Origin: a virus
Lineage: Duplodnaviria > Heunggongvirae > Uroviricota > Caudoviricetes
DNA: 64,000 nt
IMG/VR virus record: IMGVR_UViG_3300023371_000094
Reading direction: 5' to 3' (one strand)
The notes below the pieces were generated by a model. The model had not been told where the DNA came from and ran no database searches. It saw only the letters and a list, made by a program, of their open reading frames with translations. The stretch's first letter is position 1; each line of letters starts with the position of its first letter. The position numbers and the translations under genes were made by a program. Shown one piece after another: positions 4,660-58,331 of this stretch.

Positions 4660-4707
4660 CCAAGAGCCGTTGCAACACACGGCTCTTTTACTATAGAAAG
4701 GAGTATT

Positions 4708-5490
4708 ATGTTTAACGCTACATACTTTACATATGACGGCGTGTATTCCGGGGCTTACAATCTGAAGATTGCTTCGTTTGACAGTGAAACCGTCGAAGAT
4801 ACTGCGGTGTTCGCGCCGACATTGAACATAACGAAATCGGCGAGAGCTCGTAGATTTTTGCACAACGGCATTGAATATGATGACGCTCCTGAATATACAT
4901 TCAGCATCATTTCTCAAGAAGCGATTTCGGATGCGCAAAGGAGAGAGATACTGACTTGGCTGGTTGGCAGAAATGATTTCAAAAAGCTTCAGATGCACCA
5001 GCCTGAGTTCGAAGACTATTATTACAACTGCGTTTTTACAAGCGCAGATTTAATATATGTCAGAGGAAGGTGCCACGGCTTTACCGTAACGGCAAAATTC
5101 GACTCCATATTTGCATATGGCAGACCGAAGAAAATAACCGTGACAGGAACTGGCACGACGCAGACCGTAAAAATTGTCAACAATTCCGATATCCCAGATG
5201 ATTACATCTATCCCATCGTAACTTTCACAATGACGGAAGAGGGAAATGTAACCATTCTGAATACGAGTGAAGCGGTTCAAGCTGAGTTCAAGTTTACTGG
5301 AGTAAGGAATACTGAAACAATCACGGTTGATAACGAACTCAAAATAATCGAAAGCACAATTGGAGGGGACAGGCTTTCCCTCTTTAATAAAAATTGGCTT
5401 AGGTTGCAGCACGGCGTTAATGTCCTTCAAATAACCCTTAAAGGAACGATGACGATTACAGTGCCGACCTATGCTATGATAGGATTCTAA
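4708..5490 (+). CDS. Distal tail protein (Dit-like phage tail component)
   Basis: 260 aa; immediately downstream of the tape measure gene and upstream of the Tal-like gene; RBS gaaaggag. Confidence 0.65.
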   Translation: MFNATYFTYDGVYSGAYNLKIASFDSETVEDTAVFAPTLNITKSARARRFLHNGIEYDDAPEYTFSIISQEAISDAQRREILTWLVGRNDFKKLQMHQPEFEDYYYNCVFTSADLIYVRGRCHGFTVTAKFDSIFAYGRPKKITVTGTGTTQTVKIVNNSDIPDDYIYPIVTFTMTEEGNVTILNTSEAVQAEFKFTGVRNTETITVDNELKIIESTIGGDRLSLFNKNWLRLQHGVNVLQITLKGTMTITVPTYAMIGF

Positions 5491-5503
5491 AAAGGAGGAA
5501 TAC

Positions 5504-9853: not shown

Positions 9854-9854
9854 A

Positions 9855-10214
9855 ATGAAATTATCAACAATAATCAATGCACGGAGCGTGCTGGAAGGAT
9901 TTGCCGACAAAGAAGATATCGGCGCACATCTTTCTTACTGGATGACAAGGTTCATCGTTAAAACTCAAAGCGATCAAGAGTTTTACACAGCAGAAGTACG
10001 CAAGATATTTAGCAAACACGCCGAAACCAGAAAAGACGGGACAAGTATCGTTCCCAACGAGAAGGTATCAGATTTCCAAGCCGACGTTGCAAAACTCGGC
10101 GAAACGGAAGCTGAAGATCCGGGCATTCGTTTCAAGCTTGCGGAGCTTGCCGACAACCTTAAGTTGTCGATGAAGCAGATGTTCCCCTTGCTTGATTTTA
10201 TCGAGGAAGAATAA
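9855..10214 (+). CDS. Hypothetical protein with acidic C-terminus (possible tail fibre assembly helper)
   Basis: Translationally coupled to the Tal gene (stop and start 1 nt apart); followed by a rho-independent terminator. Confidence 0.45.
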   Translation: MKLSTIINARSVLEGFADKEDIGAHLSYWMTRFIVKTQSDQEFYTAEVRKIFSKHAETRKDGTSIVPNEKVSDFQADVAKLGETEAEDPGIRFKLAELADNLKLSMKQMFPLLDFIEEE

Positions 10215-10218
10215 GTAT

Positions 10219-10243
10219 AAGGGCGGGCAAAAGTCCGCCCCTT
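10219..10243 (+). terminator. Rho-independent terminator (gggcgggcaaaagtccgcccc followed by a T-rich tract)
   Basis: Perfect 8-bp GC stem with a 5-nt loop, then ttatatat. Confidence 0.7.
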
Positions 10244-10386
10244 ATATATGTGAATAGGCGAGTGTGAGATTTATAAAAGATATTCTTGCTATTGACAAAC
10301 TTAATCCGATTGGCTTATTAGCATCGGAAACCTGTGTTTTAGATGACTAAATAAAAAATAAGCAAAATGAAATAAAGGAGTAATAA

Positions 10387-13300
10387 ATGAAAATTACACA
10401 AGAATTGACCTTGGATACCTCTCGTGAAAATGCGTACAAAGTTGTGCACGCAAAGCAGTACGACGAGGATTCAAGATTTTTAAAAGTAACAATCACCACT
10501 CGCGGAGAAGAAATCGACGTTCCTTCTGGCGCAACCGTAGTATTCGGCGTAAAGAGAGCCGACTTGGAAAGCCACGACTTTGCGGGTGTTGTAAACGCCG
10601 ACGGTACCGTTACTGTACCTCTTACGAACTGGATGCTTCAGGTCGCAGGAAAATGCGTTTGTGATGTTTCGATCATCAAGGACGGCGAGAAATTCTCAAC
10701 CTTGAACTTCAGTGTTCTCGTTGAATACGCTCCCACTAACGAAACCGACATCACTGAAGACGAGGGATACGATGTACTTGTCAGCCTCGTTGAGCGCGTT
10801 GAGAATGTTGTTGACCACATCGACGAGCTTGACCAGAGAATTGCAGAGGCAGAGAGTTCTGCTACCGCGGCTGCAGAGTCGGCTGAGGCTGCATCCGAAG
10901 CTCTCTTAAATGCTCAAGACCAGATCGAAGCGGCGCAGGCACTTGCAGATAAAGCGGAAGGTTCTGCGGCAGATGCCCAAAGGTATGCTAACCAAGCTAA
11001 GGGTTACCGCGACGAGTTCGCGGATACCATTGATCAGGTTGCAGATGCAAAGGGCGAGTATGACAGCCTTGACGAGCGTATTACTGCAATGCAGACAGAA
11101 ATCGAGGGCGGCGTTCCCAAAGACATCGAAGTGCGCGAAACCGAAGACGGCAAGGAACTTATGGTTCTTGTTGACGCGGAGGGCGATCCCATTGGAGAGG
11201 GAACTGAACTTCCCGACAGCGGAGCTATGGGACTTGAGTCCGCAACCGTTACAGTTGGCGACGCTGAAATGGTTGAGGTCTGGCTGAAGGATAAAAACGG
11301 CGAAAAGATCGAGGGAAGCGAAACACGCTTTGCCGCAGGTTCTGGTGGCGGAGGTGGCGGTGGTGGTTCAACCACTATTACCGTTGAGAGAATTACACCT
11401 TCCCCTTTGATTATCACACCTACCGACGCGGCAGACATCGAGTTTAACTTCTCGTCTGTGGATACCGACGGACAGACCGTTGACGGTTATTACACTTGGA
11501 AGAATGGCTCGAAGGTTCTTGCAAGCGGTACTCTTAATCAGGGTTACAACAGCTTTGACGCAAGACAACTGCTCGGTCAGGAACTTCCTATCGGTACCAC
11601 AAAGTTCTCACTGACGGTTAACGATGACGCGGGTAGTATGCTTACCCGTATCTGGAACGTTCAGGTCGTAGACATTCGTCTTGAACCTTCCGATGCAAAC
11701 CTTGCAAAGAAGACGTATACCGTTGGAGAAAGTATTCTCTTTAACTATGTTCCTTATGGTTCCGTTGATAAGCGTGTGCACTTCAAGATGGATGGCACAG
11801 AAATTGGCTACGAAGACACTACCGCATCTGGTAGCTCGAAGAGATTTACTATCCCTGCGCAGGCTCACGGCGCTCACTTGTTTGAATGCTACATCACCGC
11901 TTCTATCAGTGGTAAGGATGTAGAAACAGAACACATCTACTACGACCTTGTTTGGTTCGATGAAGATGCTGGAACCCCCGTTATCGGTTGCGCTTATCGT
12001 AACGACCTTTATGGCGCGATTACGCTGAAACAGTTCAATACGATGATTATTCCTTTCTATGTTGTTGATCCCAATACGAGTACGCCCACAATCACAAAAG
12101 AGGTTGACGGCGAAGTTGTTGGCGAGGAAACTCTGGAAAGTTCCGAGGGCGAATGGAGCGTTAAGCTTACCGAGGTTGGCGAGCATCACCTCATCATTCG
12201 TTGCGGTGCTACATACGTTGAGATCGTAATCAATACGACCGATATCGGATTCGACGTCGAAACCGTTGACGGATACGTTTTTGACTTTAACCCCGTTGGA
12301 CGCACCAACAGTAGCGCAAACAGGCTTTGGTCTGACGAAAACAACCCCGCCATCAGTATGAGTGTTTCTGATAACTTCGACTGGCAAAACGGCGGATATC
12401 AGATTAGCAGAGATGAAGAGGGAAATGCTATTCCCGGCGAGGAATATTTCTGCATTAAATCTGGTACATATGCGACAATCAATTACAAGATGTTCGCAAA
12501 GGATGCCAAGGAAAGCGGTTCTGCTTTCAAGGTAATCTTTAAAACTACAAACGTTCGCAAAGACAACGCAAGGTTCCTGACCTGCTCTAACGGCTTGGCG
12601 GACGATAAAGTTGGACTTGTTATGAATGTCCACGAGGCATACATTAACACCAGCGCAGACGAGTTGTATGTTCCTTACAGTGAGGAAGATGCAATCGAGT
12701 TTGAATGTAATATTTGCCCCATTGGGGACGGCGAAGATGTTACTTCCTACATTATGACCTACGAAGACGGCGTTGGCTTGAGACCTTTGCTCTACGATAA
12801 CAACCACGTTATCAAGCAGTACGAGCCTGTCGAAATCGTTATTGGTTCTCCTGACTGCGATGTTTACATCTACAGAATGAGAGCTTATGAGTTCAACTTG
12901 ACGGATAGCGACATTCTTCAGAACTTCATCACTGACGCACGTACTTCTGACGAGATGATTTCTCGCCACGACAGAAACGAAATCTATGATGAAAACGGCA
13001 ACCTTACTCCCGAGATTCTTGCTGAGAGATGCCCTGACTTGAGAATTATCAAAGTTGAGGCTCCTTGGTTTACGAACGACAAGGACAACAAGATTGACGG
13101 CACTACGGTTCAGATGATTTACAAGAACGGAGATCCCGTTCTCGACAACTGGACTTGCACCGGCGCACGCCATTCGGGACAGGGTACATCGTCTAACGAA
13201 TACGGATACGCGGGAAGAAACCTTGACCTTATTATGGACAGAGATACATCACTGTTCACTTTCAGCGACGGTACAACCGGCAAGACAATCACCCTCACAA

Positions 13301-16300
13301 GAGATTCCGTTCCTACCGACTATCTCAACGTTAAGGTTAATATCGCATCTTCTGAGAACGCAAACAATGCGTTGATGGCTAACAGATATAACACATTCAA
13401 CCCCTTCAAGCGTTCAGCGAAGGTCGCAGACTCCAAGGTTAAAGACTGTATGGAGTTCCACAACTGCGTAGTTTTCATCAGAGAAGCTGACGAAGACCTT
13501 AGCACTCACAGAGAGTTCAATGATACTAACTGGCATTTCTATGCATTTGGTAATGTGGGCGACTCTAAGAAGACGGACGATACTCGTGTAAACGACAAGA
13601 ACGATCCCAAAGAGTGCGTAATCGAAATCACAGACTACAACGTTGCTCTCGCAGAGTTCCCGACAGGTTACGGCAATGCTATCTGTACTCCCGCAAACTG
13701 GAAGGCTGGAAACACCGCTTACGACGATCTCTATGCTCCTTATAAATATAAGGAAGGAGAATTCAAGTCCTTTGGTAACGGTTCTTACGAGTTCCGCTAT
13801 GAGAAGAAGGGCATTACAGACGAGGAAAGACAAGCCAATATCGACGCTTGGAGAGACTTCTATAAGTTCGTAGTTACTTCTACGGATGAAGAATTCCACG
13901 ATAACCTTGAGAATTACTTCGTAGTTGATTCTGCGCTTTATTACTACCTGTTTACCGAGCGCTATACGATGGTTGATAACCGTGCAAAGAACAGCTTCTG
14001 GCACTACGGAAAGTGCGACGATGGCGTTTACAGATGGGATTTGACCTTCGGATACGACTTTGATACCTCTCTGGGTATTGACAACACCGGTAAGCTTGTG
14101 TTGCCTTATGGTAAAGAAGACGTTGACTTCTACGTTGACGGAGATCCTTCATCTTCTTATATCTACAGAGCTGCGGAAAGCAAGTTCTTCTGCAGAATCC
14201 GCGACCTCTTCAAGACAGAGCTTATGGCTATGTATGTTAACCGCGAAGACGTTAACGCTTGGAGCTCTAACGGACTTATCACTCAATGGGATAACTCTCA
14301 GAACCAATTCCCCGAGGAATTGTGGAGAATTGACATTGAGCGTAAGTACCTTCGTACTTACAAAGGTGTTTCTATCGATAACAGTATCGCAGGCGCTTCT
14401 AACCCTCGTTTCTTCAGAGAAATGATGAACGGTAGAAAGAAGTATCAGCGTAGACAATTTGAGAGAAACCAAGAAATCTACTTCGCAACTAAGTATTTTG
14501 GTAAGACGGCAACGGCTGACCAGATAATGTTGCGTTTCAATAACCCTGTTGGCGCAGTAGTTCCCAAGGACTTCACGCTCTATCTGACTCCTTATTCCGA
14601 TATGTATATCGGCTTCAGCTTCTACAACGGACACAAGGATAACGTAAGAGCAAAGGCTGGCGTTGAATACACCATTCCTTATCCCGAAGGACTCGAAGCT
14701 GCGGATATTACGCTGATCTACGGTGCATCGTTCATTCAAGGCATCGGCGACCTTTCCAAGTGTTATGTCGGCGATAACGACTTCTCTAAGGCATCGCGCT
14801 TGCAGAGACTTACGATTGGTAGTACGACCGCAGGCTACACCAACACATTTATGACTACTCTCGCGCTTGGTAACAACAAGTTGCTTGAGTATCTGGACAT
14901 CAGAAATATGACAGGTTTGAACTCTATCGTTGACTTGACGAAGTGTTATAACCTTCTTGAGCTGTATGCCGAGGGTTCTTCTATCAGCGGCGTTGCATTC
15001 GCTAAAAACGGTAAGGTAACAACGGCGCATCTGCCTGACACTATCAACACGTTGAGAATGCAGAACCTCCAGAACCTTACGGACTTCCAGATGTCTACGG
15101 ACAGTCTTCAGCACTTGACTATTGAACATTCGTTGATTGACGAAAAGACGATGGTTGAGAAATCGGTTGATACGCTGAGAACCTTGACGCTCGCAGGTAT
15201 CGACTGGACGGGCGATAATGCTTTGGCGACCACTGAGTTGCTGAATGACATTTTCGACCTCAATGAATCAAGTCTCTCGGGACAAGTCTACATCAGCGGA
15301 CAGGTAAGAAGCCAAGAATTGGCGAACTACGAGGAAGCTTGGGACGGTCTCGTTGTAAGATATAACTCCGCTAACCTTATCGAACAGTATAAAGTAACAT
15401 ACGTTGATGATACTGGCACAGAGCTTTGTTCCTGCTATGTAGATAGAGGACAGACTCCGCCTGATCCTGTTGCAACAGGACTTCTTGACGATGTTCCCAC
15501 TAAGGCAAGCACGCCTCAGTACAGCTATGCTTTCGCATCTTGGAATGAGCTTACAAGCCCCGTTCTGGAAGCAAGAGTTGTTACTGCTGTATTTACTGCT
15601 ACCGTTCGCACTTATACCGTCGCTTGGTATGATGCTGAAGGTGGCTTGAAGCTTGACGAGCAAACCGTGGAATACGGTTCCGATGCGGTTTATGCAGGAG
15701 AAACGCCCGCAAACGAATTCGATACGAGCGTATATTCGGGTAAGATGTTTGCAGGTTGGGATAAGAGCACAGGTTATGTGCGCGGTAATATGAGTGTATA
15801 TGCCGTTTGGGAGGTAGCAAATCTGCCTTCTGCCGGCACGAAAGACCTTAGCGAAATGAACGTTGCAGAAATCTATGCGGTGGCAACTGCTGCGGCAAAC
15901 GGACTTGCAAACGTTGACGAATACTTCGTTGATAAGGACTATCACGATATTACTATGGGTACGGACTTGAATTTCTCGAACATCGAGAGCAAGGAAATCG
16001 TACCTGTTGATACGCCTCTTGTTTTGGACGGAGAAACTGCTATTGACACAGATGTATATCTGTTCGGCGACAACGAGAAATCCTTCACGATGGCTATCGA
16101 CTTCACTTATGCGTGCGACTCTACCGATACCAATGCAACCCTTGTATCTGCTTTCGAGGAAGAGGGAAGCGAAGGATTCAGGCTGAGGTTCAATAGCTAT
16201 CCGAGCATTCAGTGGGGCGACAAATCTCAGATTGTAGGTAACTACGTAAGCTCGAAGCACTATCGTGATATTGTTGTTATCAGACACCGCGCTGGTGAAA

Positions 16301-17292
16301 ACCATCTCTATGTATATAGCGGTTGTCAGACCACTAACGGTAACGGCGCAAGGTTTGCGGATGCAATCACTCGTACTCTTCTTACGAGAACCAGAGCCAC
16401 TGCTACCAATGTACCGGTTACTCTCGGTGCGGTTAGATATGGTGACGGCGGATGCGACTATTACGCCAAGGGTATTATCCACTGGTGTAAGGTTTGGTAC
16501 GATGACCTTGGAGAAACCAATGCATACGAATTAGCATCTTGGTGTCGTGAGCCTTTGAGAATGGAATTCTGTGGTACGGATAGATACAGACTTGCAGGAA
16601 CAGGAACGAGCGCGAAAGCAAAGATTTCGCTTATAGCGAACAACCTGCTTGACGGTCGTGGATACTGGATGAACAGCACGAACACTAACGCAGGCGGTTG
16701 GGATGCGAGCTTGATGCGTACATTCTGTAATACGCGCCTTGTCAATGCACTTCCTATTCAGTGGCGTAACATACTTAAGACGGTTAAGATTAGCGCGAGC
16801 GCGGGTAGTCAGTCTACCGAGATTGTTATTTCGGAAGACAAGATTTACCTTGCAGCTAACAGAGAAGTCGGCGGTTATACAACCGAACCTTATGCGAGCG
16901 AAGGTACTGCTATCTCGTGGTTTACGAGCAATGGTAGACGTTTGAAATTCAGAGGTCGTATGGTCGAGGATGATGCTACCTTCTATAGCGCGGCAGATGA
17001 TCCCAGTTTGGATCCCGCGAATGACGTCAAAGAGGGAGATATTTGGATCAATACGAGCAATGACTCTATTGGTTATATGTACCTCACTCAGGCGGAATTG
17101 GATAAGTATAATCTAACCCCGAACTTTACGGCATCTATCGGAGGCGGATGGATTATTGCCAGTGGCTGGTGGGGGCGCTCTCCGTATGCGAGCAACTCCA
17201 CGCACTTTATGCTTGTCTACGGCTACGGTGGCGCCAGCAGCTACAACGGCGCGTACGGCGTCTATGGCGTGTGCCCCTGCTTCTCAATCTAA
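10387..17292 (+). CDS. Giant baseplate/receptor-binding protein (2301 aa): BppU-like N-terminal domain, Ala-rich coiled coil, poly-Gly linker, central CotH-like domain, C-terminal C-type-lectin-fold DGR variable region. Target gene of DGR-1.
   Basis: N-terminus MKITQELTLDTSRENAYKVVHAKQYDEDSRFLKV resembles the baseplate upper protein BppU_N family; GSGGGGGGGGS linker at nt 11341-11370; segment DNRAKNSFWHYGKCDDGVYRWDLTFGYDFDTSLG resembles the CotH NxxxN..Y.Y...WDxDxxFG signature; the C-terminal 45 codons are the VR matching TR-1. Confidence 0.85.
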   Translation: MKITQELTLDTSRENAYKVVHAKQYDEDSRFLKVTITTRGEEIDVPSGATVVFGVKRADLESHDFAGVVNADGTVTVPLTNWMLQVAGKCVCDVSIIKDGEKFSTLNFSVLVEYAPTNETDITEDEGYDVLVSLVERVENVVDHIDELDQRIAEAESSATAAAESAEAASEALLNAQDQIEAAQALADKAEGSAADAQRYANQAKGYRDEFADTIDQVADAKGEYDSLDERITAMQTEIEGGVPKDIEVRETEDGKELMVLVDAEGDPIGEGTELPDSGAMGLESATVTVGDAEMVEVWLKDKNGEKIEGSETRFAAGSGGGGGGGGSTTITVERITPSPLIITPTDAADIEFNFSSVDTDGQTVDGYYTWKNGSKVLASGTLNQGYNSFDARQLLGQELPIGTTKFSLTVNDDAGSMLTRIWNVQVVDIRLEPSDANLAKKTYTVGESILFNYVPYGSVDKRVHFKMDGTEIGYEDTTASGSSKRFTIPAQAHGAHLFECYITASISGKDVETEHIYYDLVWFDEDAGTPVIGCAYRNDLYGAITLKQFNTMIIPFYVVDPNTSTPTITKEVDGEVVGEETLESSEGEWSVKLTEVGEHHLIIRCGATYVEIVINTTDIGFDVETVDGYVFDFNPVGRTNSSANRLWSDENNPAISMSVSDNFDWQNGGYQISRDEEGNAIPGEEYFCIKSGTYATINYKMFAKDAKESGSAFKVIFKTTNVRKDNARFLTCSNGLADDKVGLVMNVHEAYINTSADELYVPYSEEDAIEFECNICPIGDGEDVTSYIMTYEDGVGLRPLLYDNNHVIKQYEPVEIVIGSPDCDVYIYRMRAYEFNLTDSDILQNFITDARTSDEMISRHDRNEIYDENGNLTPEILAERCPDLRIIKVEAPWFTNDKDNKIDGTTVQMIYKNGDPVLDNWTCTGARHSGQGTSSNEYGYAGRNLDLIMDRDTSLFTFSDGTTGKTITLTRDSVPTDYLNVKVNIASSENANNALMANRYNTFNPFKRSAKVADSKVKDCMEFHNCVVFIREADEDLSTHREFNDTNWHFYAFGNVGDSKKTDDTRVNDKNDPKECVIEITDYNVALAEFPTGYGNAICTPANWKAGNTAYDDLYAPYKYKEGEFKSFGNGSYEFRYEKKGITDEERQANIDAWRDFYKFVVTSTDEEFHDNLENYFVVDSALYYYLFTERYTMVDNRAKNSFWHYGKCDDGVYRWDLTFGYDFDTSLGIDNTGKLVLPYGKEDVDFYVDGDPSSSYIYRAAESKFFCRIRDLFKTELMAMYVNREDVNAWSSNGLITQWDNSQNQFPEELWRIDIERKYLRTYKGVSIDNSIAGASNPRFFREMMNGRKKYQRRQFERNQEIYFATKYFGKTATADQIMLRFNNPVGAVVPKDFTLYLTPYSDMYIGFSFYNGHKDNVRAKAGVEYTIPYPEGLEAADITLIYGASFIQGIGDLSKCYVGDNDFSKASRLQRLTIGSTTAGYTNTFMTTLALGNNKLLEYLDIRNMTGLNSIVDLTKCYNLLELYAEGSSISGVAFAKNGKVTTAHLPDTINTLRMQNLQNLTDFQMSTDSLQHLTIEHSLIDEKTMVEKSVDTLRTLTLAGIDWTGDNALATTELLNDIFDLNESSLSGQVYISGQVRSQELANYEEAWDGLVVRYNSANLIEQYKVTYVDDTGTELCSCYVDRGQTPPDPVATGLLDDVPTKASTPQYSYAFASWNELTSPVLEARVVTAVFTATVRTYTVAWYDAEGGLKLDEQTVEYGSDAVYAGETPANEFDTSVYSGKMFAGWDKSTGYVRGNMSVYAVWEVANLPSAGTKDLSEMNVAEIYAVATAAANGLANVDEYFVDKDYHDITMGTDLNFSNIESKEIVPVDTPLVLDGETAIDTDVYLFGDNEKSFTMAIDFTYACDSTDTNATLVSAFEEEGSEGFRLRFNSYPSIQWGDKSQIVGNYVSSKHYRDIVVIRHRAGENHLYVYSGCQTTNGNGARFADAITRTLLTRTRATATNVPVTLGAVRYGDGGCDYYAKGIIHWCKVWYDDLGETNAYELASWCREPLRMEFCGTDRYRLAGTGTSAKAKISLIANNLLDGRGYWMNSTNTNAGGWDASLMRTFCNTRLVNALPIQWRNILKTVKISASAGSQSTEIVISEDKIYLAANREVGGYTTEPYASEGTAISWFTSNGRRLKFRGRMVEDDATFYSAADDPSLDPANDVKEGDIWINTSNDSIGYMYLTQAELDKYNLTPNFTASIGGGWIIASGWWGRSPYASNSTHFMLVYGYGGASSYNGAYGVYGVCPCFSI
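17152..17287 (+). repeat. DGR-1 variable region (VR) at the 3' end of the giant RBP gene
   Basis: 136-bp match to TR (18261..18396); about 23 differences, every one at a TR adenine (e.g. TR aac to VR ggc/tac/agc/cac; gag to ggg; aat to tat/ctt; tga to tgc); a hairpin ctcgac-ttcggt-gtcgag at 17314..17331 lies just downstream. Confidence 0.9.
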
Positions 17293-17436
17293 AGCGGATA
17301 GGCAACATATAAATTCTCGACTTCGGTGTCGAGCGTAAAATAAACAGCTATCAATTGGTGGCAAGCTATCAGAAATATCTGGTGGCTTGCCCACCAGTAA
17401 TGCTGTCATAAATAAGGAAGAAAAGGAAAATAAAAA

Positions 17437-18231
17437 ATGTCGGTTTTAAAAAGCAGGAGAACACTATCGAAATTTGAATTCGAACATACTTTCGCAACAT
17501 TCTATCAATTTTCTGCCGAAAGAATGGCGTCCGTCGCCAAGCGCAGGCACAGATGGATTTGTTGGAAGATGGAAGTCAAGCTCAATAAGATATTCAACGA
17601 GCTGATGGAAATTAACGAAGGCTATTTCGAGAGTGCGACCAAAAGAGAAGAGATAGATGAAATAATCAAAACAGCAATAGAAGATCTGAGAGATCTCGAA
17701 AAGCCGATGATGGTGTTTTGGAATATCGAACAATACGAAATCAGACGAATGGTGGCGTGGGCATCGATGCTGAATGCAGAAATAGATATACTATCTTCAA
17801 TGCGAAGCACAGTAGCCCCAGCCGAGAAGGTACAGGTTTTAGATTGGAGAACGATTTTGAATGTAAAGTTTTTAAGCAACATTTTCGAGCTTCACCGAAT
17901 AATCCACGGCAAGGTAGTAAGGGTTCCAAGTAAGTACGATGATACCTATTCATCTTTGCTGATTGATTTGATTGATGAGGCGTTGTATTCCTTAGTTAAG
18001 GCAAACCGAAAAATGCCGACGACAAAGAAGGAATACGATACAAGAAAGAAACACATCTCCAACGCCATATCCTGCTTAAGAAAAATGCAACGACCACTTG
18101 TGTTTTTCTTTAACGTGATGGGATACAGCGAGCGATCTTTGAATGAAATATCTGAAAAAATCAGTGAAGAGTTGAAGATGCTGTATGCTTTGAATAAATC
18201 AGATAAGACCAGATTTGGAAAGCTTGAATAA
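17437..18231 (+). CDS. avd: Avd-like accessory variability determinant of DGR-1 (264 aa, about twice the usual Avd size)
   Basis: Sits between VR and TR; basic helical protein; N-terminus MSVLKSRR matches the MSVLKKDR of the 137-aa Avd-like protein upstream of RT-2. Confidence 0.55.
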   Translation: MSVLKSRRTLSKFEFEHTFATFYQFSAERMASVAKRRHRWICWKMEVKLNKIFNELMEINEGYFESATKREEIDEIIKTAIEDLRDLEKPMMVFWNIEQYEIRRMVAWASMLNAEIDILSSMRSTVAPAEKVQVLDWRTILNVKFLSNIFELHRIIHGKVVRVPSKYDDTYSSLLIDLIDEALYSLVKANRKMPTTKKEYDTRKKHISNAISCLRKMQRPLVFFFNVMGYSERSLNEISEKISEELKMLYALNKSDKTRFGKLE

Positions 18232-18260
18232 TAAATAAATTTGGGTTGGTTATATTCTGC

Positions 18261-18396
18261 ATTATTGCCAGTAACTGGTGGGAGCGCTCTCCGAATGCGA
18301 GCAACTCCACGAACTTTATGAATGTCAACAACAACGGTAACGCCAACAACAACAACAACGCGAACAACGTCAATGGCGTGTGCCCCTGATTCTCAT
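18261..18396 (+). repeat. DGR-1 template repeat (TR), adenine-rich (about 20 AAC codons in the VR frame)
   Basis: Non-coding, between avd and RT; identical to VR except at adenines; ends with ggcgtgtgcccctgattctca (the IMH-like 3' end shared with VR). Confidence 0.9.
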
Positions 18397-18691
18397 ACAT
18401 TAAGTAGCTATGAATAAGAGTGAACGCTTTATCTATAAAGGTATGGATGAGAAGGAGAATATGACCATCTGTTAGGAATAACAGTAAATATTACATCTGC
18501 TTGTGTTAAAGCAGGTATGCTTTGATAGCATTCTCGGTTTATCGGGTGGATCGCTAACGTGCATGGATCAGTCATTGGTTATTGGACTGGTTTCTTTACA
18601 TACCCAGATAAACGCGCGATTGATATAATAACCGAACATAATAATCGACGAGAGGAAAATCGATATATTATAAGGATTTAAAAAGGTTTTT

Positions 18692-19981
18692 ATGGATAAT
18701 TACGGACGAATACAAGTAAGGATAGCCCGTGATAAAGCAAGGAGACGGGCAAAAAAGGAAAGAATGAACGCCGAATACGATAATTTTGACAAGGTTATCC
18801 GAGTGCAGAATTACGTTGAGGCATTGAACAAATGTCGGAAAGGAGTCGCTTGGAAAGGTACAGTTCAGGAGTATCTCCAGAATGGAGTCACTGAAATGCA
18901 CAAAGTAACGACAGCGCTTAAAAAGGGAGAGATTCCTAAGCTGGCGAGTAGTAGACGAATTGAAATCTATGAAAGAGGCAAGAAGAGAATTATTGTTCCG
19001 GTTACTATTAAAGATAGAATGACACAGCGCGTTCTATGCGACAAAGCGTTGACTCCCGTTTTATGCAGGTCGTTGATTTACGACAACGGAGCCAGTCTTG
19101 CAGGAAAGGGCGTAGAATTTACGCGCGACAGGCTGGAATTTCATTTAAGACGTGCCATTGCGGAATACGGGAACGATTTTCACGCTCTTGTTTTTGATTT
19201 CAAGAGCTTTTTCGACAGCATACCTCATCGAACTTGCTGGAAGGTTTTGAACGAACACTTCGAAGATGAGCGTATTAAGAAATTAGTTATGAACATAATT
19301 TGCTCCTATCAAGAGCCAGAGATAATGGAAATACAGGATAGGAGAGAAAGGGAAGAAAAGCTGAGGATATTACATAGCTTTCAAGGGAAGGGCATTTGCT
19401 TGGGAAGTCAAATATCTCAGGTGATGGCTTTATCCGTCCCCAGCAAATTAGATCATTTTATTAAGGATAAGATGCGCGTGAAGCATTATATCCGATATAT
19501 GGATGACGGAGTTATTTTCTCGAACGATAAAGAGTTCTTACACGAGCTTCGTGCGAAAATGCGCGAGGTGGCAACTGAACTCGGTCTTACGTTCAACGAG
19601 AGAAAGACTCGTGTCGTCAGAATATCCAGAGGCTTTACCTTTATGAAGGTAAGATACTGGGTGACATCAGAAGGGAAAGTAATAAAGAAGCTGACGCGCT
19701 CGGGCATCACACGAATGCGCCGGAAGCTTAAAAAGTTAGCACGCTTGGTAAAGAACGGAACGATAACACTTGATGATGTGTATAACTCAATGCAGTCGTG
19801 GGTAGCACATTCAAAAGTTGCAAGGTCGTACCACACTTTAAGAAGTATGCTGAGCTTATATTACAAGCTCTTTGGTGGGTATAAGTCCCACAGAAAATAT
19901 ACGAAACAAGGATGGGTTAAAAATGAAATTTTACAAAATGATAAATGGCGAGAATTTCGTTGGAATTGGAACGTCGCTTGA
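18692..19981 (+). CDS. DGR reverse transcriptase (RT-1)
   Basis: RT motifs including LGSQISQ (the DGR-specific SQ in motif 4) and YMDD (RYMDDGVIF); about 300 bp downstream of TR-1. Confidence 0.9.
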   Translation: MDNYGRIQVRIARDKARRRAKKERMNAEYDNFDKVIRVQNYVEALNKCRKGVAWKGTVQEYLQNGVTEMHKVTTALKKGEIPKLASSRRIEIYERGKKRIIVPVTIKDRMTQRVLCDKALTPVLCRSLIYDNGASLAGKGVEFTRDRLEFHLRRAIAEYGNDFHALVFDFKSFFDSIPHRTCWKVLNEHFEDERIKKLVMNIICSYQEPEIMEIQDRREREEKLRILHSFQGKGICLGSQISQVMALSVPSKLDHFIKDKMRVKHYIRYMDDGVIFSNDKEFLHELRAKMREVATELGLTFNERKTRVVRISRGFTFMKVRYWVTSEGKVIKKLTRSGITRMRRKLKKLARLVKNGTITLDDVYNSMQSWVAHSKVARSYHTLRSMLSLYYKLFGGYKSHRKYTKQGWVKNEILQNDKWREFRWNWNVA

Positions 19982-20666
19982 TATGAGATGCTTCCAGTTG
20001 AAGCACAAAATAATCCTGAGATGTGATGAAAGCAAAGCACAGTATATCCAATACAAAGACGAGCTTTATCGTGCCACTTGGATGCTTCCTGTGAACAACA
20101 CCGCAAACACATATACGATTGTTGAGATCATCGAAATCAACGAAGAAGAGTATAATGCTCTGAAAAATGCCATCGAATCGGGCGAAGAGGTTGAGGTTAC
20201 GCCTCCCAAAGAAGAAGTGGTAACTCCTGTTGAGCCGGAGATTTCTCCTGCTGATAAGGCGACCATCGAATATGTCAGAAGCGCCAAGATCAACGCTATG
20301 AGCGTAGAGTGCAACAAGGCTGTTACTAATGGCTTTGATGTCGTCTTGGCTGACGGATTGGTTCACCACTTTGATTTGACAATCGAAGACCAGTTGAACC
20401 TCATTTCTCTTAAGGAAATGATTGCAGCGGGCGCAACCGAAGTGCCTTACCACGAAAAAGGCTGTCTATGCAAAATGTATAGTGCAGAAGACATTACTAT
20501 CGTTATGGATACGGCTTCGGCTCACAAGACGTATCATCTCACCTATTTCAATTCTCTCAAGAATTACATAATGAATATCAACGAAATCAGCGAGGTAGAC
20601 GGCGTACAGTATGGAATTGAAATTCCTGTGGAGTATTGCTCTGAAATACTGCTTTCAATCGCCTAA
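19923..20666 (+). CDS. Hypothetical protein (alternative start ATG at 19983, directly after the RT-1 stop)
   Basis: ORF overlaps the RT-1 3' end; no recognisable domain; Glu/Val/Pro-rich linker in the middle. Confidence 0.45.
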   Translation: MKFYKMINGENFVGIGTSLDMRCFQLKHKIILRCDESKAQYIQYKDELYRATWMLPVNNTANTYTIVEIIEINEEEYNALKNAIESGEEVEVTPPKEEVVTPVEPEISPADKATIEYVRSAKINAMSVECNKAVTNGFDVVLADGLVHHFDLTIEDQLNLISLKEMIAAGATEVPYHEKGCLCKMYSAEDITIVMDTASAHKTYHLTYFNSLKNYIMNINEISEVDGVQYGIEIPVEYCSEILLSIA

Positions 20667-20674
20667 CAGTAACT

Positions 20675-21100
20675 ATGAAAAACACACTTAAAATGGGTTG
20701 CCTCTTCTTAATCGGAGGGGCAATCTATGTACTTATCGAACTTGTATATAGAGGTTATTCTCACTGGACAATGTTCTTGCTCGGCGGTCTGTGCTTCGTG
20801 CTGATTGGCGGCGTGAACGAATACATTCCGTGGGAAATGCCACTATGGCTACAGGCTGGAATAGGCGCTGTAATCATCACGGTGCTTGAGTTTATATGCG
20901 GGTGCATAGTCAATCTGGCGCTCGGGTGGAATGTCTGGGACTATAGCAACACTCCACTCAACATATTAGGACAGGTATGTTTACCTTTTGCAATCATCTG
21001 GTTTGTGATAGCACACTTCGGGATTGTCTTGGATGACTACTTGCGTTACTGGCTTTTCAAAGAAGAGAAGCCATACTATACATACAAATTTAAACATTAA
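20675..21100 (+). CDS. Small integral membrane protein (4 predicted TM helices)
   Basis: Hydrophobic segments GCLFLIGGAIYVLIELV, MFLLGGLCFVLIGGV, AGIGAVIITVLEFICGCIV, VCLPFAIIWFVIAHFGIVL. Confidence 0.5.
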   Translation: MKNTLKMGCLFLIGGAIYVLIELVYRGYSHWTMFLLGGLCFVLIGGVNEYIPWEMPLWLQAGIGAVIITVLEFICGCIVNLALGWNVWDYSNTPLNILGQVCLPFAIIWFVIAHFGIVLDDYLRYWLFKEEKPYYTYKFKH

Positions 21101-21111
21101 CAGGAGTAGAA

Positions 21112-21525
21112 ATGTCGGTACTTAAAAAGGACAGAGGCGAAAGCGCGGTTCAGTTCTTGGAAACTGCGCGGAATTTAGAAATATTCACCCTCAGAACTTG
21201 TGCCAAATTTCCAAAGCGTTATACATTTTTAATTACTGCTGAGATAGCTCAGCTATCCAGAAGCATTTACAACAATGTAAAGTCTGCGAATAGCATATTT
21301 CCTACAAATCAATCAGAGGTGCAAATGCGCCGCAACTTCTTTACGAAGGCAAACTGCGATCTTCAATGTCTGGTATCCCAACTGGACGTTGCGAAGGTTA
21401 TGTTCGGAGAAGAGGTCAAGGTGGGAACTTGGTGCCAATGGATGGATTTGATAGAGGAAGAAGCAAAGCTAATTTCAGCTATCAAGAAAATAGATAAAGA
21501 ACGCTATAAGGGCTTACCTCTTTAA
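21112..21525 (+). CDS. avd: Avd-like accessory variability determinant of DGR-2 (137 aa)
   Basis: Typical Avd size; immediately upstream of the TR-like segment and RT-2; N-terminus homologous to the avd-1 product. Confidence 0.6.
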   Translation: MSVLKKDRGESAVQFLETARNLEIFTLRTCAKFPKRYTFLITAEIAQLSRSIYNNVKSANSIFPTNQSEVQMRRNFFTKANCDLQCLVSQLDVAKVMFGEEVKVGTWCQWMDLIEEEAKLISAIKKIDKERYKGLPL

Positions 21526-21549
21526 GCGTTCTTTTTATATGGGTTATAA

Positions 21550-21700
21550 GCCGTTTTGTCTTTGTTTTGCGTTCCCCTTACCGTGGTAACAGTAACTACT
21601 TCTGCTACGTGTATGGCGGTGACTTCAATTACAACTACGCCAGCAATCACTACGCTGTCGCCTTCGGATCTTGCACAATATGCCCGACAAAGTAACCTTC
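21550..21700 (+). repeat. Candidate DGR-2 template repeat (TR-2), a diverged homologue of TR-1/VR-1
   Basis: Non-coding between avd-2 and RT-2 (the ORF-track N-terminal extension of 21556..23046 is not real coding). In the VR-like frame it reads RSPYRGNSNYFCYVYGGDFNYNYASNHYAVAFGSCTICPTK*, compared with VR-1 RSPYASNSTHFMLVYGYGG...GVCPCFS. Contains AAC/AAT codons and ends in a stop, as TR-1 does. Confidence 0.55.
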
Positions 21701-21885
21701 AAGGTGAAATCTGTGCGTGTGCAAAAGGGGCATATAACCCTTCCTTCGGGATAAAGAAATACGTTGATGTGGTCTATCGGACGCTTCTTGCATTGCTCGC
21801 GATTGTGGTAGCGAGTTTAATGATAGGTACCACTATGCAGTTATTCCCACAATATTTTACTGTACTGGGTATAAAGGAATTAAAA

Positions 21886-23046
21886 ATGAATAGTAAGGAA
21901 AGACACGAGTTGAGATATCAGCGGCGCAAACAAAAGCGCCTTGAAAAGAAAAAGCGTTATCAGGATTGTTATGATTACGATAAGGTGTTTACGTTCGAGA
22001 ACCTTTATCGTAGTTATGAGAAATGTTGCGCGGGCGTCGGTTGGAAGCCCAGCACGCAACTCTATAAGGCGAATGCCTTGATGAATATAAATCGAACATA
22101 TAAGAGCCTACGAGAAGAAACCTATGCTCCGAGGAAGCTAAATGAATTCGACATCATTGAACGCGGGAAGCAGCGTCACATACAAAGTCCTACGATGAAC
22201 GATAGGATAGTGCAAAGATGCTTTTGCGATTATAGCTTGATGCCGATTATTTGCAGAACAATTATCTATGATAATACCGCCTGCGTCAAAGGACGCGGAT
22301 TGAGTTTTACCATAAAGAGAATGACTCGGCATTTAGAGAAGTATTACAGAGAGCAGGGAAGTAATGAGGGATACGCATTACTCTTTGATTTCTCGCAGTA
22401 TTTTAAGAACATCAGGCACGACGTGGCTCTATCAATACTTGATGAAAAGATACCAGACAAGCGGTTGGTTAGGCTTGCAGAACTTATCATAAAGCAATAT
22501 GGCAATGAAGGGTTGGGGCTCGGTAGCCAAGTGTCGCAATGTTGTGCATTGGCGCTCCCGGACAAGCTCGATCACCTCATCAAAGAGAAGCTAAAGATAA
22601 AGTATTATTGCCGCTATATGGATGATGGTTGCATTATCCACCCCAACAAAGATTATTTGCGTTATTGTCTTCAAGAGATTAAATCCGTATGCAGTGAGCT
22701 TGGAATTATAATCAATGAAAAGAAGACGCAAATTGTAAAGATAAAATCTGGCATCAAGTTCCTTAAAGCTCGCTTTATTCTAACGAAGAGTGGACGAGTC
22801 ATAAGGAAGCCGTATACCAAGAGCGCAACGAAAATGCGCAAGAAGCTCAAAGTATTAAAGCTGAAGCTTGATGCAGGGCTCATAACCTTTGCTGACGTTT
22901 GGACACCATTCCAATCGTGGCTTGGTTATCACAAACAATTTCACGGATACTGGGCAAGACGAAGAGTCTGTTCTTTATTCAATAATTTATTTTACACAGG
23001 AGGAAACACAAATGGATTGGCAAACAGTTTTACTTTCGGCACTTAG
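21886..23046 (+). CDS. DGR reverse transcriptase (RT-2), paralogue of RT-1
   Basis: True start MNSKERHELRYQ with RBS aaaggaattaaaaATG; motifs LGSQVSQ and RYMDDGCII; alignable to RT-1 across its full length. Confidence 0.85.
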   Translation: MNSKERHELRYQRRKQKRLEKKKRYQDCYDYDKVFTFENLYRSYEKCCAGVGWKPSTQLYKANALMNINRTYKSLREETYAPRKLNEFDIIERGKQRHIQSPTMNDRIVQRCFCDYSLMPIICRTIIYDNTACVKGRGLSFTIKRMTRHLEKYYREQGSNEGYALLFDFSQYFKNIRHDVALSILDEKIPDKRLVRLAELIIKQYGNEGLGLGSQVSQCCALALPDKLDHLIKEKLKIKYYCRYMDDGCIIHPNKDYLRYCLQEIKSVCSELGIIINEKKTQIVKIKSGIKFLKARFILTKSGRVIRKPYTKSATKMRKKLKVLKLKLDAGLITFADVWTPFQSWLGYHKQFHGYWARRRVCSLFNNLFYTGGNTNGLANSFTFGT

Positions 23047-23407
23047 TATCGTGTTGACTGCGTTGATAACGTGGGGATCGGAAAGACTGATTTCTTATCT
23101 CAACACAAAAATCACTAACACCAAGTATGCCAACTATCTCACGGACGCGGTGGAAATCGTTACCCGCGCAGTGAAGGCTACATATCAGACATATGTAGAA
23201 GCGTTGAAGGACAAGAATATGTTTACTGAGGAAGCTCAGAAAGAAGCCTTGACTCGCGCAACAACCTTGGCAATGTCGCAGCTATCGCAGGAACTCCAAA
23301 CATTCATTACGACCAATTTTGGCGACCTCGAAGGATGGATTCAGAATGCGATTGAGTCGAGCTTGTACGATCTGAAGAACAAACCGACGGGCGATAAAGC
23401 CAACTAA
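23012..23407 (+). CDS. Holin-like protein (single N-terminal TM plus helical tail; resembles the LL-H holin family)
   Basis: RBS ggaggaaacacaaATG; MDWQTVLLSALSIVLTALITW TM segment followed by a charged amphipathic region; 132 aa. Confidence 0.35.
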   Translation: MDWQTVLLSALSIVLTALITWGSERLISYLNTKITNTKYANYLTDAVEIVTRAVKATYQTYVEALKDKNMFTEEAQKEALTRATTLAMSQLSQELQTFITTNFGDLEGWIQNAIESSLYDLKNKPTGDKAN

Positions 23408-23480: not shown

Positions 23481-24668
23481 TTATTCGCTTAGTATATCTG
23501 TTAAAGTACTTTGCATTATTGATGCAACCCTACTGATGCTGTCATCCTTGAGGTGGGTGTATATTTTCTCAGTAATACGAGAGTTGGAGTGACCTAAGTA
23601 TTTAGCCATATGGGCATAGTCAATTCCGCGCTCAATGCCGAGTGTGCAGAATGTGTGTCTAAGGTCGTGTATACGGATGTGCTTTAGGTTGTGTTTAGCG
23701 AGGAAACGTGAGAACTTGTTGTTCATCTGGTTCGGGCGCAAGGGAAGTCCCTTTTCGCTGACAATAACATATTCTCCGAGTATTCCTTTTTCTTCTTGCT
23801 GTTTACGATATTCGAGCAAACAATCTTTTAGTAGAGGATCCATTACTAACGCTCTGCGGCTCTTTTTTGTTTTTGGTTCCTTGGTAATAATCTTCCCTTT
23901 GATCGGTGTTCTCACTTGGGCTATATAGATGCGTCCTGTTTCGAAGTCAATGTTATTCCACGTCAACCCCGCAATCTCTCCGCGGCGTAGCCCTTCCCAC
24001 ATTCCCAGATACACAAATGCTTTTAACCTTAAATCCTTGCTTTCGTCTATTAGAGCTAACAGCTCCTTAACTTCCTGCGCGGTATAGGCTGTGCCCTCAA
24101 ACTCTTCGACCGGTAGCTTGCGTATTCTCTCGACTACATTGTCGGTGATATATTCACAGTCCTTTGCGTAGTTAAAAACGGCGCACAGGAATGTTCGGTC
24201 GGAGTTGATGGTTTTTGCTTTAAGCTTTCCTTCTTTTACGAGAGCATCGATGTACTCTTGCACATCAATTTTCTTTACCCGGATTATCTTTTTCTTCCCG
24301 AGTCCACGCGCCACGATTCTCCGTAGGATATTGTAGTAATCCTCTTGAGTGGTAGGGGCGAGGGGTTTGTTTTCAATATAAGCCTTGGCACATTCTTCGA
24401 TAGTGATTTGTGTATTGGTACTGTGTTTGCCAAGATTAGTTCTTTCGTATTCGTGTTTCTTCAGGAGAGCCTCAGCTTCCTTGAGGGTATCACACGTCTT
24501 GAACGTTCTCTGTGGCTTACCAAGTTCGGCGCCGAGGTACAATGTCACGATGTACTTGCCAGTCTTTTTATTACGAGCAATATTCCTCTTAACTGTTTCT
24601 CGTTCGCCTGTTCCTTTTTTACCTTGTTGAGTCCTTGTTAATTCTTTTACGTCTTCATTTTTCGTCAT
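23481..24668 (-). CDS. int: Tyrosine-type phage integrase
   Basis: Catalytic signature GLRRGEIAGL ... HDLRHTFCT ... GHSNSRITEKIYTHL (R-H-R-Y); strong sigma70-type promoter upstream. Confidence 0.9.
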   Translation of the reverse strand: MTKNEDVKELTRTQQGKKGTGERETVKRNIARNKKTGKYIVTLYLGAELGKPQRTFKTCDTLKEAEALLKKHEYERTNLGKHSTNTQITIEECAKAYIENKPLAPTTQEDYYNILRRIVARGLGKKKIIRVKKIDVQEYIDALVKEGKLKAKTINSDRTFLCAVFNYAKDCEYITDNVVERIRKLPVEEFEGTAYTAQEVKELLALIDESKDLRLKAFVYLGMWEGLRRGEIAGLTWNNIDFETGRIYIAQVRTPIKGKIITKEPKTKKSRRALVMDPLLKDCLLEYRKQQEEKGILGEYVIVSEKGLPLRPNQMNNKFSRFLAKHNLKHIRIHDLRHTFCTLGIERGIDYAHMAKYLGHSNSRITEKIYTHLKDDSISRVASIMQSTLTDILSE

Positions 24669-53187: not shown

Positions 53188-53658
53188 TTAAACGTTTAGT
53201 TCCCAAACCTCAACGTCCCAGCCATCTTCAGAAAATGCTTCCTCGATAAGCTCTTTGACAACACTCCAGTCGCCACCAGCAAGTCCGCATCCAATCTTAG
53301 CAGGGAAGCCAATCTTGTAGATAGACTTGATATGGCAGAAGCTTTTAATCATCGCAAGGCAACTCTTAAATGCTTCGTAGTTGGTATGTTGAATACCGCG
53401 CGGAAGATATTCTCTCTGCGAATACATATTGATGACGAAACGCAGAGAGCCATTTTCTGTTTCCACAGGAACGATATCGATTTCGCCGAGCTTAGCCTCG
53501 CCTTTCTCGAACCGTTCTCTGAGCGCTTTGTAAGAGTCGGGATAAAGGGCTCGAATTGTCTTTGCAATACCCGAGCCCATAACTCCCATACAGTTGGTTT
53601 GATGGCAGATCACATTGCAGGAGCTTTTGATTAAATCTCCTTGGTGATATGTAACCAT
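53188..53658 (-). CDS. Macro-domain protein (ADP-ribose binding/processing)
   Basis: GDLIKSSCNVICHQTNCMGVMGSGIAKTI ... GFPAKIGCGLAGGDW is typical of macro/Appr-1-p processing domains. Confidence 0.7.
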   Translation of the reverse strand: MVTYHQGDLIKSSCNVICHQTNCMGVMGSGIAKTIRALYPDSYKALRERFEKGEAKLGEIDIVPVETENGSLRFVINMYSQREYLPRGIQHTNYEAFKSCLAMIKSFCHIKSIYKIGFPAKIGCGLAGGDWSVVKELIEEAFSEDGWDVEVWELNV

Positions 53659-56497: not shown

Positions 56498-56573
56498 TGG
56501 TCGGAGCAACGGGACTCGAACCCACAACATCTCGCTCCCAAAGCGAGAGCTCTACCATTGAACTATGCCCCGA
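56498..56573 (-). tRNA. tRNA-Pro (anticodon TGG)
   Basis: Manual cloverleaf: anticodon loop TTTGGGA, GGTTCGAGTCC T-arm, CCA encoded. Confidence 0.75.
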
Positions 56574-56574
56574 T

Positions 56575-56656: not shown

Positions 56657-56658
56657 CG

Positions 56659-56733: not shown

Positions 56734-56736
56734 AAA

Positions 56737-57373: not shown

Positions 57374-57376
57374 ATA

Positions 57377-58329: not shown

Positions 58330-58331
58330 AT

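Follow-up and report, generated by a model that had tools for sequence, protein, structure and literature searches.

The prototype of the diversity-generating retroelements (DGRs) is that of Bordetella phage BPP-1, which consists of the target gene mtd with its variable repeat (VR), the accessory gene avd, a template repeat (TR) and the reverse transcriptase (RT) gene brt. Two putatively phage-associated DGRs without an adjacent target have been described, with one target about 20 kb away, and several DGRs were found in about 10% of the DGR-bearing genomes (Wu et al., 2018; PMC5758913). Large surveys in which the VR is sought only beside the RT gene state that they are unable to see such cases (Roux et al., 2021). 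The domain DUF6273 is a published DGR target domain with a C-type-lectin-like (CLec-like) fold in gut Firmicutes (Faecalibacterium) phages. The RNA motifs named RT-1 to RT-19 are motifs that adjoin RT genes, of which the motif RT-10 separates the TR from the RT gene in BPP-1 (Weinberg et al., 2017). Here, we analyzed a stretch of 64,000 nucleotides (the window) of the Caudoviricetes record IMGVR_UViG_3300023371_000094 in IMG/VR, in which two DGR cassettes, DGR-1 and DGR-2, stand in tandem. An earlier note on this DNA, made from its letters alone, had described DGR-2 as apparently orphan, because a matching VR could not be found anywhere in the 64 kb. We identified a cognate VR (VR-2) in a target gene 42 kb away, and DGR-2 is very probably a complete and functional DGR whose only target is a non-adjacent gene of the same phage genome. 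The components of DGR-2, with their lengths in amino acids (aa) and nucleotides (nt), are the following.

21112..21525, plus strand: avd-2, the gene for the accessory variability determinant of DGR-2 (137 aa; from the table of open reading frames (ORFs) and PHROG 3206)
21567..21673, plus strand: TR-2, the non-coding template repeat of DGR-2 (107-nt match to VR-2; 22 adenines)
21678..21892, plus strand: structured spacer RNA, Rfam RF03077 "RT-2 RNA" (found with cmscan), presumably the section of the DGR RNA that binds RT/Avd and serves in priming
21886..23046, plus strand: RT-2, the gene for a DGR-type reverse transcriptase (386 aa; LGSQVSQ, YMDD)
63901..63923, minus strand: GC-rich hairpin (9-bp stem, 5-nt loop) 17 nt past the target stop codon, a candidate for the equivalent of BPP-1's target-site hairpin or cruciform
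63940..64000, minus strand: 3' end of the DGR-2 target gene (last 19 codons and stop codon; 239 aa in the 100%-identical contig L007, positions 9230..9949)
63947..64000, minus strand: the 3' 54 nt of VR-2 that lie within the window, aligning with TR-2 at 21620..21673 (full VR at 63947..64053 in extended coordinates)

Read in the VR frame, the segment 21567..21695 gives RSPYRGNSNYFCYVYGGDFNYNYASNHYAVAFGSCTICPTK followed by a stop codon, which is exactly the translation given in the earlier note. An ungapped, adenine-tolerant scan of both strands of the window with the whole TR-2 segment (129 nt) detected no partner, and neither did a scan of the window with reversed roles, in which the segment was treated as a VR and its TR was sought. 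The full-length scan was empty because the window truncates VR-2, and pieces of 50 nt revealed the match. Window positions 64000..63947 (minus strand) align with TR-2 at 21620..21673 with six mismatches. Five of these are at TR adenines; the sixth, C>T, belongs to the 3' border and is situated two bases before the homology ends. The chance expectation for this 54-nt match within the window is about 8e-18. VR-2 had been missed by the earlier reader because it is cut by the window and lies on the other strand.

Public contigs (many, 54-105 kb in length) were reached via a 73-aa ORF (63667..63888, minus strand) just downstream of the target. Sequence beyond the window was taken from contig L007 (ena:ERZ27248351:k141_3027810), which is 100% identical to the window over 10,334 nt at the window end and adds 9,888 bases. 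The full TR-2/VR-2 pair (21567..21673 against 64053..63947, minus strand) covers 107 nt with nine mismatches, of which eight are at TR adenines. The search for a partner with mismatches only at adenines, which the earlier note had proposed, thus led to VR-2, and TR-2 and VR-2 are near-repeats that differ at TR adenines, as is characteristic of a DGR. In a self-BLAST of the window together with the additional 9.9 kb, the only adenine-biased repeat pairs were those of DGR-1 and TR-2/VR-2, and no third TR was found there for a third RT that is encoded nearby. Nearly all TR-2 adenines (21/22) are at codon positions 1 and 2 of the VR frame (AAY, TAY, AGY, GAC, and CAC codons). A stop codon is unreachable by adenine mutagenesis of TR-2 in this frame and about 3e12 peptides are reachable.

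The target gene is in frame with VR-2 and ends with the residues DFRYNCASNRYAVAFGFCI before the stop codon at 63940. It encodes a DUF6273 protein with a CLec-like fold and VR-2 occupies the C-terminal end of this protein, the usual position of a VR in DGR target proteins. The target family comprises 87 clusters, mostly of 237-250 aa and all but one with DUF6273, and shows a conserved body and a hypervariable C-terminal stretch after WLRSP; an N-terminal CxxC...CxxC segment is present in most members. A tblastn search with the target identified only three unannotated faecal phage contigs (30-38% identity), and a megablast search with the last 4 kb of the window against 50,697 phage records gave no match. 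One possibility raised earlier was a remote target such as a head or tail-fibre gene upstream of position 1. The target is indeed non-adjacent, but it is neither upstream of position 1 nor a head or tail-fibre gene. It is a DUF6273 protein encoded on the minus strand, and the last 61 nt of its gene lie inside the window.

VR-2 was compared with its template at the population level by aligning 18 metagenomic VR-2 copies (15 of them unique), taken from different contigs, with TR-2. Variation was found at 21 of the 22 TR-2 adenine positions (158 mismatches), compared to 5 of the 80 non-adenine positions (13 mismatches). TR-2 itself is 100% identical across nine related contigs, in which the spacer has a few single-nucleotide polymorphisms (SNPs). 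Compared to the window, the JGI contig Ga0224414_10002229 (99,871 bp) is free of differences across the 12.4 kb that include both DGRs. In the 5.9 kb at the window end, five differences are present (63998, 63993, 63992, 63987, and 63986), and each of them falls on a VR-2 position for which TR-2 has an adenine. Two further contigs differ from the window at four positions each, again only at adenine-templated sites of VR-2. With a static TR-2 and a VR-2 that is dynamic at adenine-templated sites in these comparisons, DGR-2 is apparently active. Two contigs (L029 and L038) start at, or inside, the 3' part of the target gene, some 190-270 nt upstream of the gene for the 73-aa protein; we regard this as an effect of the hypervariable sites on assemblies. 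Exact-pattern scans of IMG/VR for the 3' ends of VR-2 and TR-2 gave no matches for either, and a scan of metagenome contigs returned only two short, unrelated contigs.

The same organization is present in a divergent relative. Contig CBDPWR010000013.1 of assembly GCA_965334335.1 encodes an RT-2 homologue with 61% identity and a target homologue with 53% identity. The gene order in this contig is a 2262-aa target, a 264-aa Avd-1, a 429-aa RT-1, a DUF4376 protein, a 136-aa Avd-2, the template repeat TR-2' and a 381-aa RT-2, and the remote target again follows a retron-type RT and an RNase H, about 62 kb away. All mismatches are at adenines both in the TR-2'/VR-2' pair (113 nt, 18/18) and in the TR-1'/VR-1' pair (129 nt, 24/24). 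The tandem DGRs and the remote-target layout are therefore conserved in this relative.

The RT-2 protein contains the [ILV]GxxxSQ motif as LGSQVSQ and the catalytic YxDD motif as YMDD, both read directly from the translation, and matches Pfam RVT_1 (5e-18) and PHROG 1423 (3e-90). Its best solved relative is the RT of the BPP-1 DGR (bRT, 8ub7; E=1.3e-20), with group II intron RTs scoring behind, in line with the earlier description of a second full-length DGR-type RT. At E<=1e-30, 1744 RT-2 homologues were found, mostly 372-387 aa long, and these homologues start at the equivalent of MNSKER. The most likely start of RT-2 is the ATG at 21886, giving 386 aa. The earlier note had asked whether RT-2 is intact in related phages; the gene is uninterrupted in every related contig examined. 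The avd-2 product matches PHROG 3206 "Avd protein of DGR" (E=7.3e-8), and its AlphaFold model is a four-helix bundle (pLDDT 84). In Foldseek, the top matches of this model are 2gsc chains (Xcc0516; TM 0.6-0.87, prob 1.0), and 2rld was also found. The 2gsc and 2rld bundles presumably represent the fold class of PF05635, to which we take Avd to be related. PF05635 was touched only below its cut-off, in 16 of the 35 members of the Avd-2 family. A gene for an Avd-type four-helix bundle, as predicted by the model, is thus located beside TR-2, and ORF, PHROG match and model together agree with the 137-aa Avd homologue with an MSVLKK N-terminus of the earlier note.

The match of the spacer to RF03077 scores 125.5 bits compared to a gathering score of 40 (E~1e-29), covers the complete model (positions 1-222/222) and extends from where the TR homology ends up to the start codon of RT-2. 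As this instance of RF03077 lies between the verified TR-2 and a DGR RT, it is assigned to a DGR. The spacer would act as scaffold and primer of DGR-2, by analogy with the RNA of described DGRs. A weak match to the same model (19.2 bits, E=0.32) was observed at 18443..18676, in the spacer between TR-1 and RT-1, so the spacers of the two DGRs may be related, though very distantly. At the 3' border of the repeats the TR has GGATCTTG and the VR has GGCTTTTG: A21668 is replaced by C in 18/18 VRs, and C21670 by T. The hairpin downstream of the target (63901..63923) has a predicted DNA fold of -12.6 kcal/mol (z=-3.45; 0/200 shuffles as good). The eight VR-2 loci compared have it in identical form, and in L039, the divergent relative, it persists with GAAT as its loop. 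The 3' border, a candidate IMH/IMH* difference, is the probable guide of homing to VR-2, and the hairpin may play a part as well.

The upstream cassette, DGR-1, consists of the following features.

17153..17280, plus strand: VR-1, at the C-terminus of a 2301-aa tail-fibre-like target (10387..17292) with DUF6273 at its C-terminus
17437..18231, plus strand: avd-1 (264 aa)
18262..18389, plus strand: TR-1, the template repeat of DGR-1
18692..19981, plus strand: RT-1, the RT gene of DGR-1

DGR-1 is a genuine DGR, as had been stated before: TR-1 and VR-1 have 23 mismatches at adenines and none elsewhere. The gap of about 1.1 kb between the cassettes given in the earlier note is also correct, as avd-2 begins 1.13 kb past the end of RT-1 (19981). 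The cassettes are separated by an ORF (19923..20666) for a DUF4376 / tail-fibre-like protein (PHROG 1348, 2e-16), which, as previously noted, carries no VR, and a gene (20675..21100) for a 141-aa multi-pass membrane protein (PF06541, phrog_20274). No PF06541 gene was called between the cassettes in the divergent relative L040, and the membrane gene is therefore considered part of neither DGR. Avd-1 is, with 264 aa, twice the usual length. Only its residues 148-263 weakly resemble the Avd PHROG, and the stretch 1-70 is similar to phrog_30516 and to the N-terminus of Avd-2. Avd-1 may represent a duplicated or fused Avd. RT-1 and RT-2 share 36% identity, Avd-1 and Avd-2 are barely alignable (E=0.048), and relatives of RT-2 with about 60% identity exist in other contigs. 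The tandem pair is therefore not a recent duplication, and on these sequence comparisons DGR-1 and DGR-2 are distinct lineages.

Four other explanations for these observations were considered. According to one, already mentioned in the earlier note, the second cassette is an orphan, a decaying and non-functional duplicate of DGR-1 without a cognate VR. The invisibility of a full VR within the 64 kb and the lower number of AAY codons in TR-2 compared to TR-1 would fit such decay. However, a cognate VR-2 with differences at adenines exists, it differs at adenine sites between otherwise identical genomes, RT-2 is intact wherever it was seen, the RTs and Avds of the two cassettes are as dissimilar as described above, and the layout is kept at 61% RT identity. 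TR-2 is invariant and VR-2 varies almost only at TR-adenine sites, so that we practically dismiss the decaying duplicate, and the term orphan no longer applies. The diversity of VR-2 could also have arisen by point mutation of the ordinary kind, by recombination or through diversifying selection that acts on a binding loop, its likeness to TR-2 being due to shared ancestry only. The binding loops of phage adhesins are often hypervariable without a DGR, but ordinary mutation does not predict the concentration of variable sites at TR adenines (21/22 compared to 5/80 elsewhere), the invariance of TR-2, the 18/18 adenine bias in the independent, diverged TR-2'/VR-2' pair, or the complete lack of SNPs elsewhere in about 18 kb of the near-isogenic contigs. 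This explanation is extremely improbable.

The two remaining explanations accept the sequence relationships and concern the role of the cassette parts. The stretch 21556..21885 could be coding, as an N-terminal extension of a 496-aa RT, in which case the TR would be part of a gene. The mechanically called RT-2 ORF indeed starts at TTG 21556 (496 aa) and runs through TR-2 and the spacer without interruption, and among the closely related contigs listed, most (L009-L011, L014, and L020-L023) have an RT-2 annotated with 496 aa. In the close relatives L012, L013, and L025, which have a few SNPs in this upstream stretch, the extension is nevertheless broken or left uncalled, and the calls are 417 or 386 aa. 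Most homologues have 372-387 aa and the RT in the divergent relative has 381 aa, Rfam places a full-length structured RNA on 21678..21892, and the frame of the extension differs from that of the VR peptide. A coding extension is very improbable, and the non-coding status that had been proposed for 21550..21700 is retained. The 496-aa calls through TR-2 by several gene callers look like an annotation artefact typical of DGR loci. In the case of cross-use, TR-2 RNA would be copied by RT-1/Avd-1 or by both enzymes, with RT-2 being dispensable or having another role. Both cassettes are on the same strand within 5 kb, which makes co-transcription possible, and the weak RF03077 match in the TR-1/RT-1 spacer might indicate distantly related spacers. 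Yet both cassettes have retained an Avd, a spacer and an RT of their own in divergent relatives, the spacers of DGR-2 and DGR-1 score 125 and 19 bits on RF03077, respectively, VR-1 and VR-2 have unrelated 3' borders, and homologues of RT-2 with an identity of about 60% or below are numerous. Cross-use is quite improbable, and we infer that RT-2, not RT-1, is the enzyme acting on TR-2. The distinct spacers and 3' borders suggest that DGR-1 and DGR-2 are insulated from each other. With its own components in each cassette, the phage therefore has two separate hypermutation systems.

Several points weigh against DGR-2 being a complete and functional DGR with a single remote target. Avd-2 has no match above threshold in Pfam (PF05635, PF22296) or NCBIfam, sequence and profile searches of the PDB with Avd-2 gave only chance-level matches (e.g., ribosomal protein S15), and the BPP-1 Avd is absent from the top Foldseek matches of the Avd-2 model. 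Minimum free energy folding of the spacer between TR-2 and RT-2 is no better than that of shuffled sequences (z=-0.47), although the covariance model match is strong. A promoter scan around and upstream of avd-2 found none. The 5' 53 nt of VR-2 are, for the genome of the window, deduced from L007, the contig with identical flanks. The variation at the five non-adenine positions of VR-2 stems from more divergent strains (L001, L002, L004, L005, and L036), which were compared with the TR-2 of the window. RT-1/Avd-1 may contribute to the use of TR-2, and the support for complementary DNA (cDNA) synthesis and retrohoming by DGR-2 is comparative throughout.

Taking DGR-2 as functional, the following mechanism is proposed, in which the steps of spacer binding, priming and homing are modelled on the BPP-1 paradigm. 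avd-2, TR-2, the structured spacer (RT-2 motif) and RT-2 would be transcribed from the plus strand. A complex of RT-2 and Avd-2 would bind the spacer, prime there and reverse-transcribe TR-2, misincorporating nucleotides opposite template adenines. The adenine-mutagenised cDNA would then home to and replace VR-2, which makes up the last approximately 107 nt of the 239-aa DUF6273 gene, 42 kb away, on the opposite strand and in a non-structural block. As an outcome, 16 codons on the presumed ligand-binding face of the target would be recoded, resulting in approximately 3e12 possible peptides. DGR-1, directly upstream, would use an RT, Avd, TR and spacer of its own to diversify the 2301-aa tail-fibre-like protein encoded beside it.

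The function of the target protein can be approached from its family and its genomic surroundings. The reading that we favour, though with a little less than even confidence, is that of a virion-associated adhesin or receptor-binding accessory protein, as proposed for other small DUF6273 targets. That the target is an intracellular binder in the conflict between phage and host is possible but rather unlikely. Such an intracellular role rests on the combination of a Zn-ribbon and CLec target that is seemingly co-transcribed with a retron-type RT, a candidate non-coding RNA (ncRNA) and RNase HI, and the minus-strand block of the target also carries NAD+-salvage, macro-domain and RNA-repair-like genes. 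It is doubtful whether DGR-2 as a whole is dedicated to evolving an intracellular, non-virion binding protein, i.e., a hypervariable counter-defence protein or binder of host factors. If true, the intracellular binder would represent an adaptive recognition module on the phage side that is separate from the tail-fibre DGR.

The RNase HI gene is located 14 nt upstream of the target gene, and the third RT gene further upstream (in L007). This third RT is of the retron type (464 aa), and together with a non-coding region and RNase HI it occupies L007 6866..9215 (extended coordinates approximately 64674..67023, minus strand). It scores 167 bits with NCBIfam retron_St85_RT, which is below the cut-off of 235, and 1.7e-44 with PADLOC RT_II-A. 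The RT gene is followed by a conserved 500-nt non-coding region and then by the RNase HI gene. A long msd-like hairpin (CCGTTCTGAAT...ATTCAGAACCG) is present in the non-coding region; its interior differs between strains and its stem is apparently kept. A Rfam scan of the region with the third RT, RNase H and the target gave no match. The third RT may be part of a phage-borne retron with the ncRNA downstream of the RT gene. The divergent relative retains this third RT together with RNase H and the target as a trio. Upstream of the retron-type RT, L007 encodes a ThiF/E1-like protein (5868..6542; PADLOC E1-E2 models, 2e-16) and a DUF2828/DUF7788 protein (1029..2546), and between these two genes two large proteins (465 and 334 aa) without a family match.

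At the genome level, both DGR cassettes belong to a plus-strand block (295..23407), together with a holin-like gene and very large ORFs of the structural type, and from the integrase gene (23481..24668) to the window end nearly all genes are on the minus strand. The integrase is a tyrosine integrase encoded on the minus strand directly after the DGR-2 and holin-like genes and convergent with them, which suggests that the phage is temperate. The names that homologues bear point to hosts among the Clostridia or Christensenellales. The minus-strand block around the target contains genes for metallophosphatases, an AAA_33/KTI12-type kinase, nicotinamidase, phosphoribosyltransferase, NAMPT, NAD synthase and macro-domain proteins as well as an array of 12 transfer RNAs (tRNAs). 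An NAD+-related cluster is found on the same strand as the target at approximately 53188..56471 (minus strand) and at L007 17418..20222. In the genome of the window it comprises, according to Pfam, isochorismatase/nicotinamidase, phosphoribosyltransferase and NAMPT genes, and in sister contigs a macro-domain protein and an NAD synthase are next. We assume that this cluster is comparable to the NAD+-reconstitution counter-defence modules of phages. The 12 tRNA genes (Pro, Leu x3, Gly, Lys, Gln, Ser x2, Thr, Met, and Trp) are in an ORF-free gap at 56498..59019 (minus strand), and this array explains the 66-nt direct repeat 56751..56816 / 57970..58035 detected by self-BLAST.

The distance from TR-2 to VR-2 is 42 kb through the window and about 58-62 kb the other way around; in two related contigs it is about 62 kb on the linear sequence. 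In Ga0224414_10002229, TR-2 is located near 82.9 kb and VR-2 near 21.3 kb, i.e., the loci wrap around. Together with the related contigs of 99.9-105 kb, these wrap-around loci fit a circular or terminally redundant genome of approximately 100 kb.

These results describe a presumably temperate gut phage of about 100 kb that keeps two separate DGRs, one for a giant tail fibre and one for a small lectin-like protein. Detection limited to a window or contig, with the VR sought within about 10 kb of the RT gene, misses targets such as that of DGR-2 and results in false orphans. Assemblies also tend to break at the VR, and calls of orphan DGRs at the edges of windows or contigs should be treated with caution. 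The near-isogenic contigs that differ only at VR-2 adenine sites form a natural system to study the turnover of a DGR and the insulation of co-resident DGRs.

Compared to the BPP-1 DGR, DGR-2 has the same order of avd, TR, spacer and RT, the same adenine-specific differences between TR and VR, a VR at the C-terminus of a protein with a C-type-lectin fold, a hairpin just downstream of the VR and a structured RNA that separates the TR from the RT gene (the RT-10 motif in BPP-1 and the RT-2 motif in DGR-2). The spacers belong to different Rfam families. In BPP-1, mtd is directly upstream of avd and its product is the tip of the tail fibre, whereas the only target of DGR-2 is 42 kb away on the other strand and is a small protein encoded among non-structural genes. 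The spacer is a full-length match to RF03077 directly upstream of an RT gene, which is how the motif was defined (Weinberg et al., 2017). The original description left open whether the motif belongs to retrons or DGRs; here it is found between a verified TR and its DGR RT, so that one instance of this previously unassigned motif is now placed in a DGR.

The Quimbyvirus DGR (Benler et al., 2021; PMC8008677) is similar in that it occurs in a gut phage and has a target far from the structural module, on the opposite strand and among defence/counter-defence-type genes, and in that its activity was inferred from variation at adenine sites among near-identical genomes. It differs in being a single DGR, with one TR for two targets and an RT split over three frames, whereas the phage described here has two complete DGRs with unrelated TRs and one target each. 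The DGRs of Faecalibacterium phages (Toutatis, Lelie, CP11, Roos, and Pioen; "tentaclins") also have DUF6273 CLec-like targets with the VR at the C-terminus and combine a large and a small target in one phage, and the second VR of Toutatisvirus is 17.5 kb away from the TR. In these much smaller genomes, however, a single DGR serves both targets, and the small targets are encoded near structural genes and have been interpreted as receptor-binding or Hoc-like proteins. In comparison with the DGRs with only a remote target described by Wu et al. (2018; PMC5758913), the distance is approximately twice as large (42 kb, and about 62 kb linear in two related contigs), and DGR-2 stands in tandem with a second, canonical DGR. 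In the parts of the literature covered by our search for two DGRs, or a second DGR, in one phage, a tandem pair was not described. Each feature of DGR-2 thus has a precedent, and their combination, two unrelated tandem DGRs of which the second solely serves a distant small protein encoded beside a retron-type RT and RNase H, was not met in the texts covered by that search. DGR-2 is a canonical and very probably functional DGR in an uncommon architecture.

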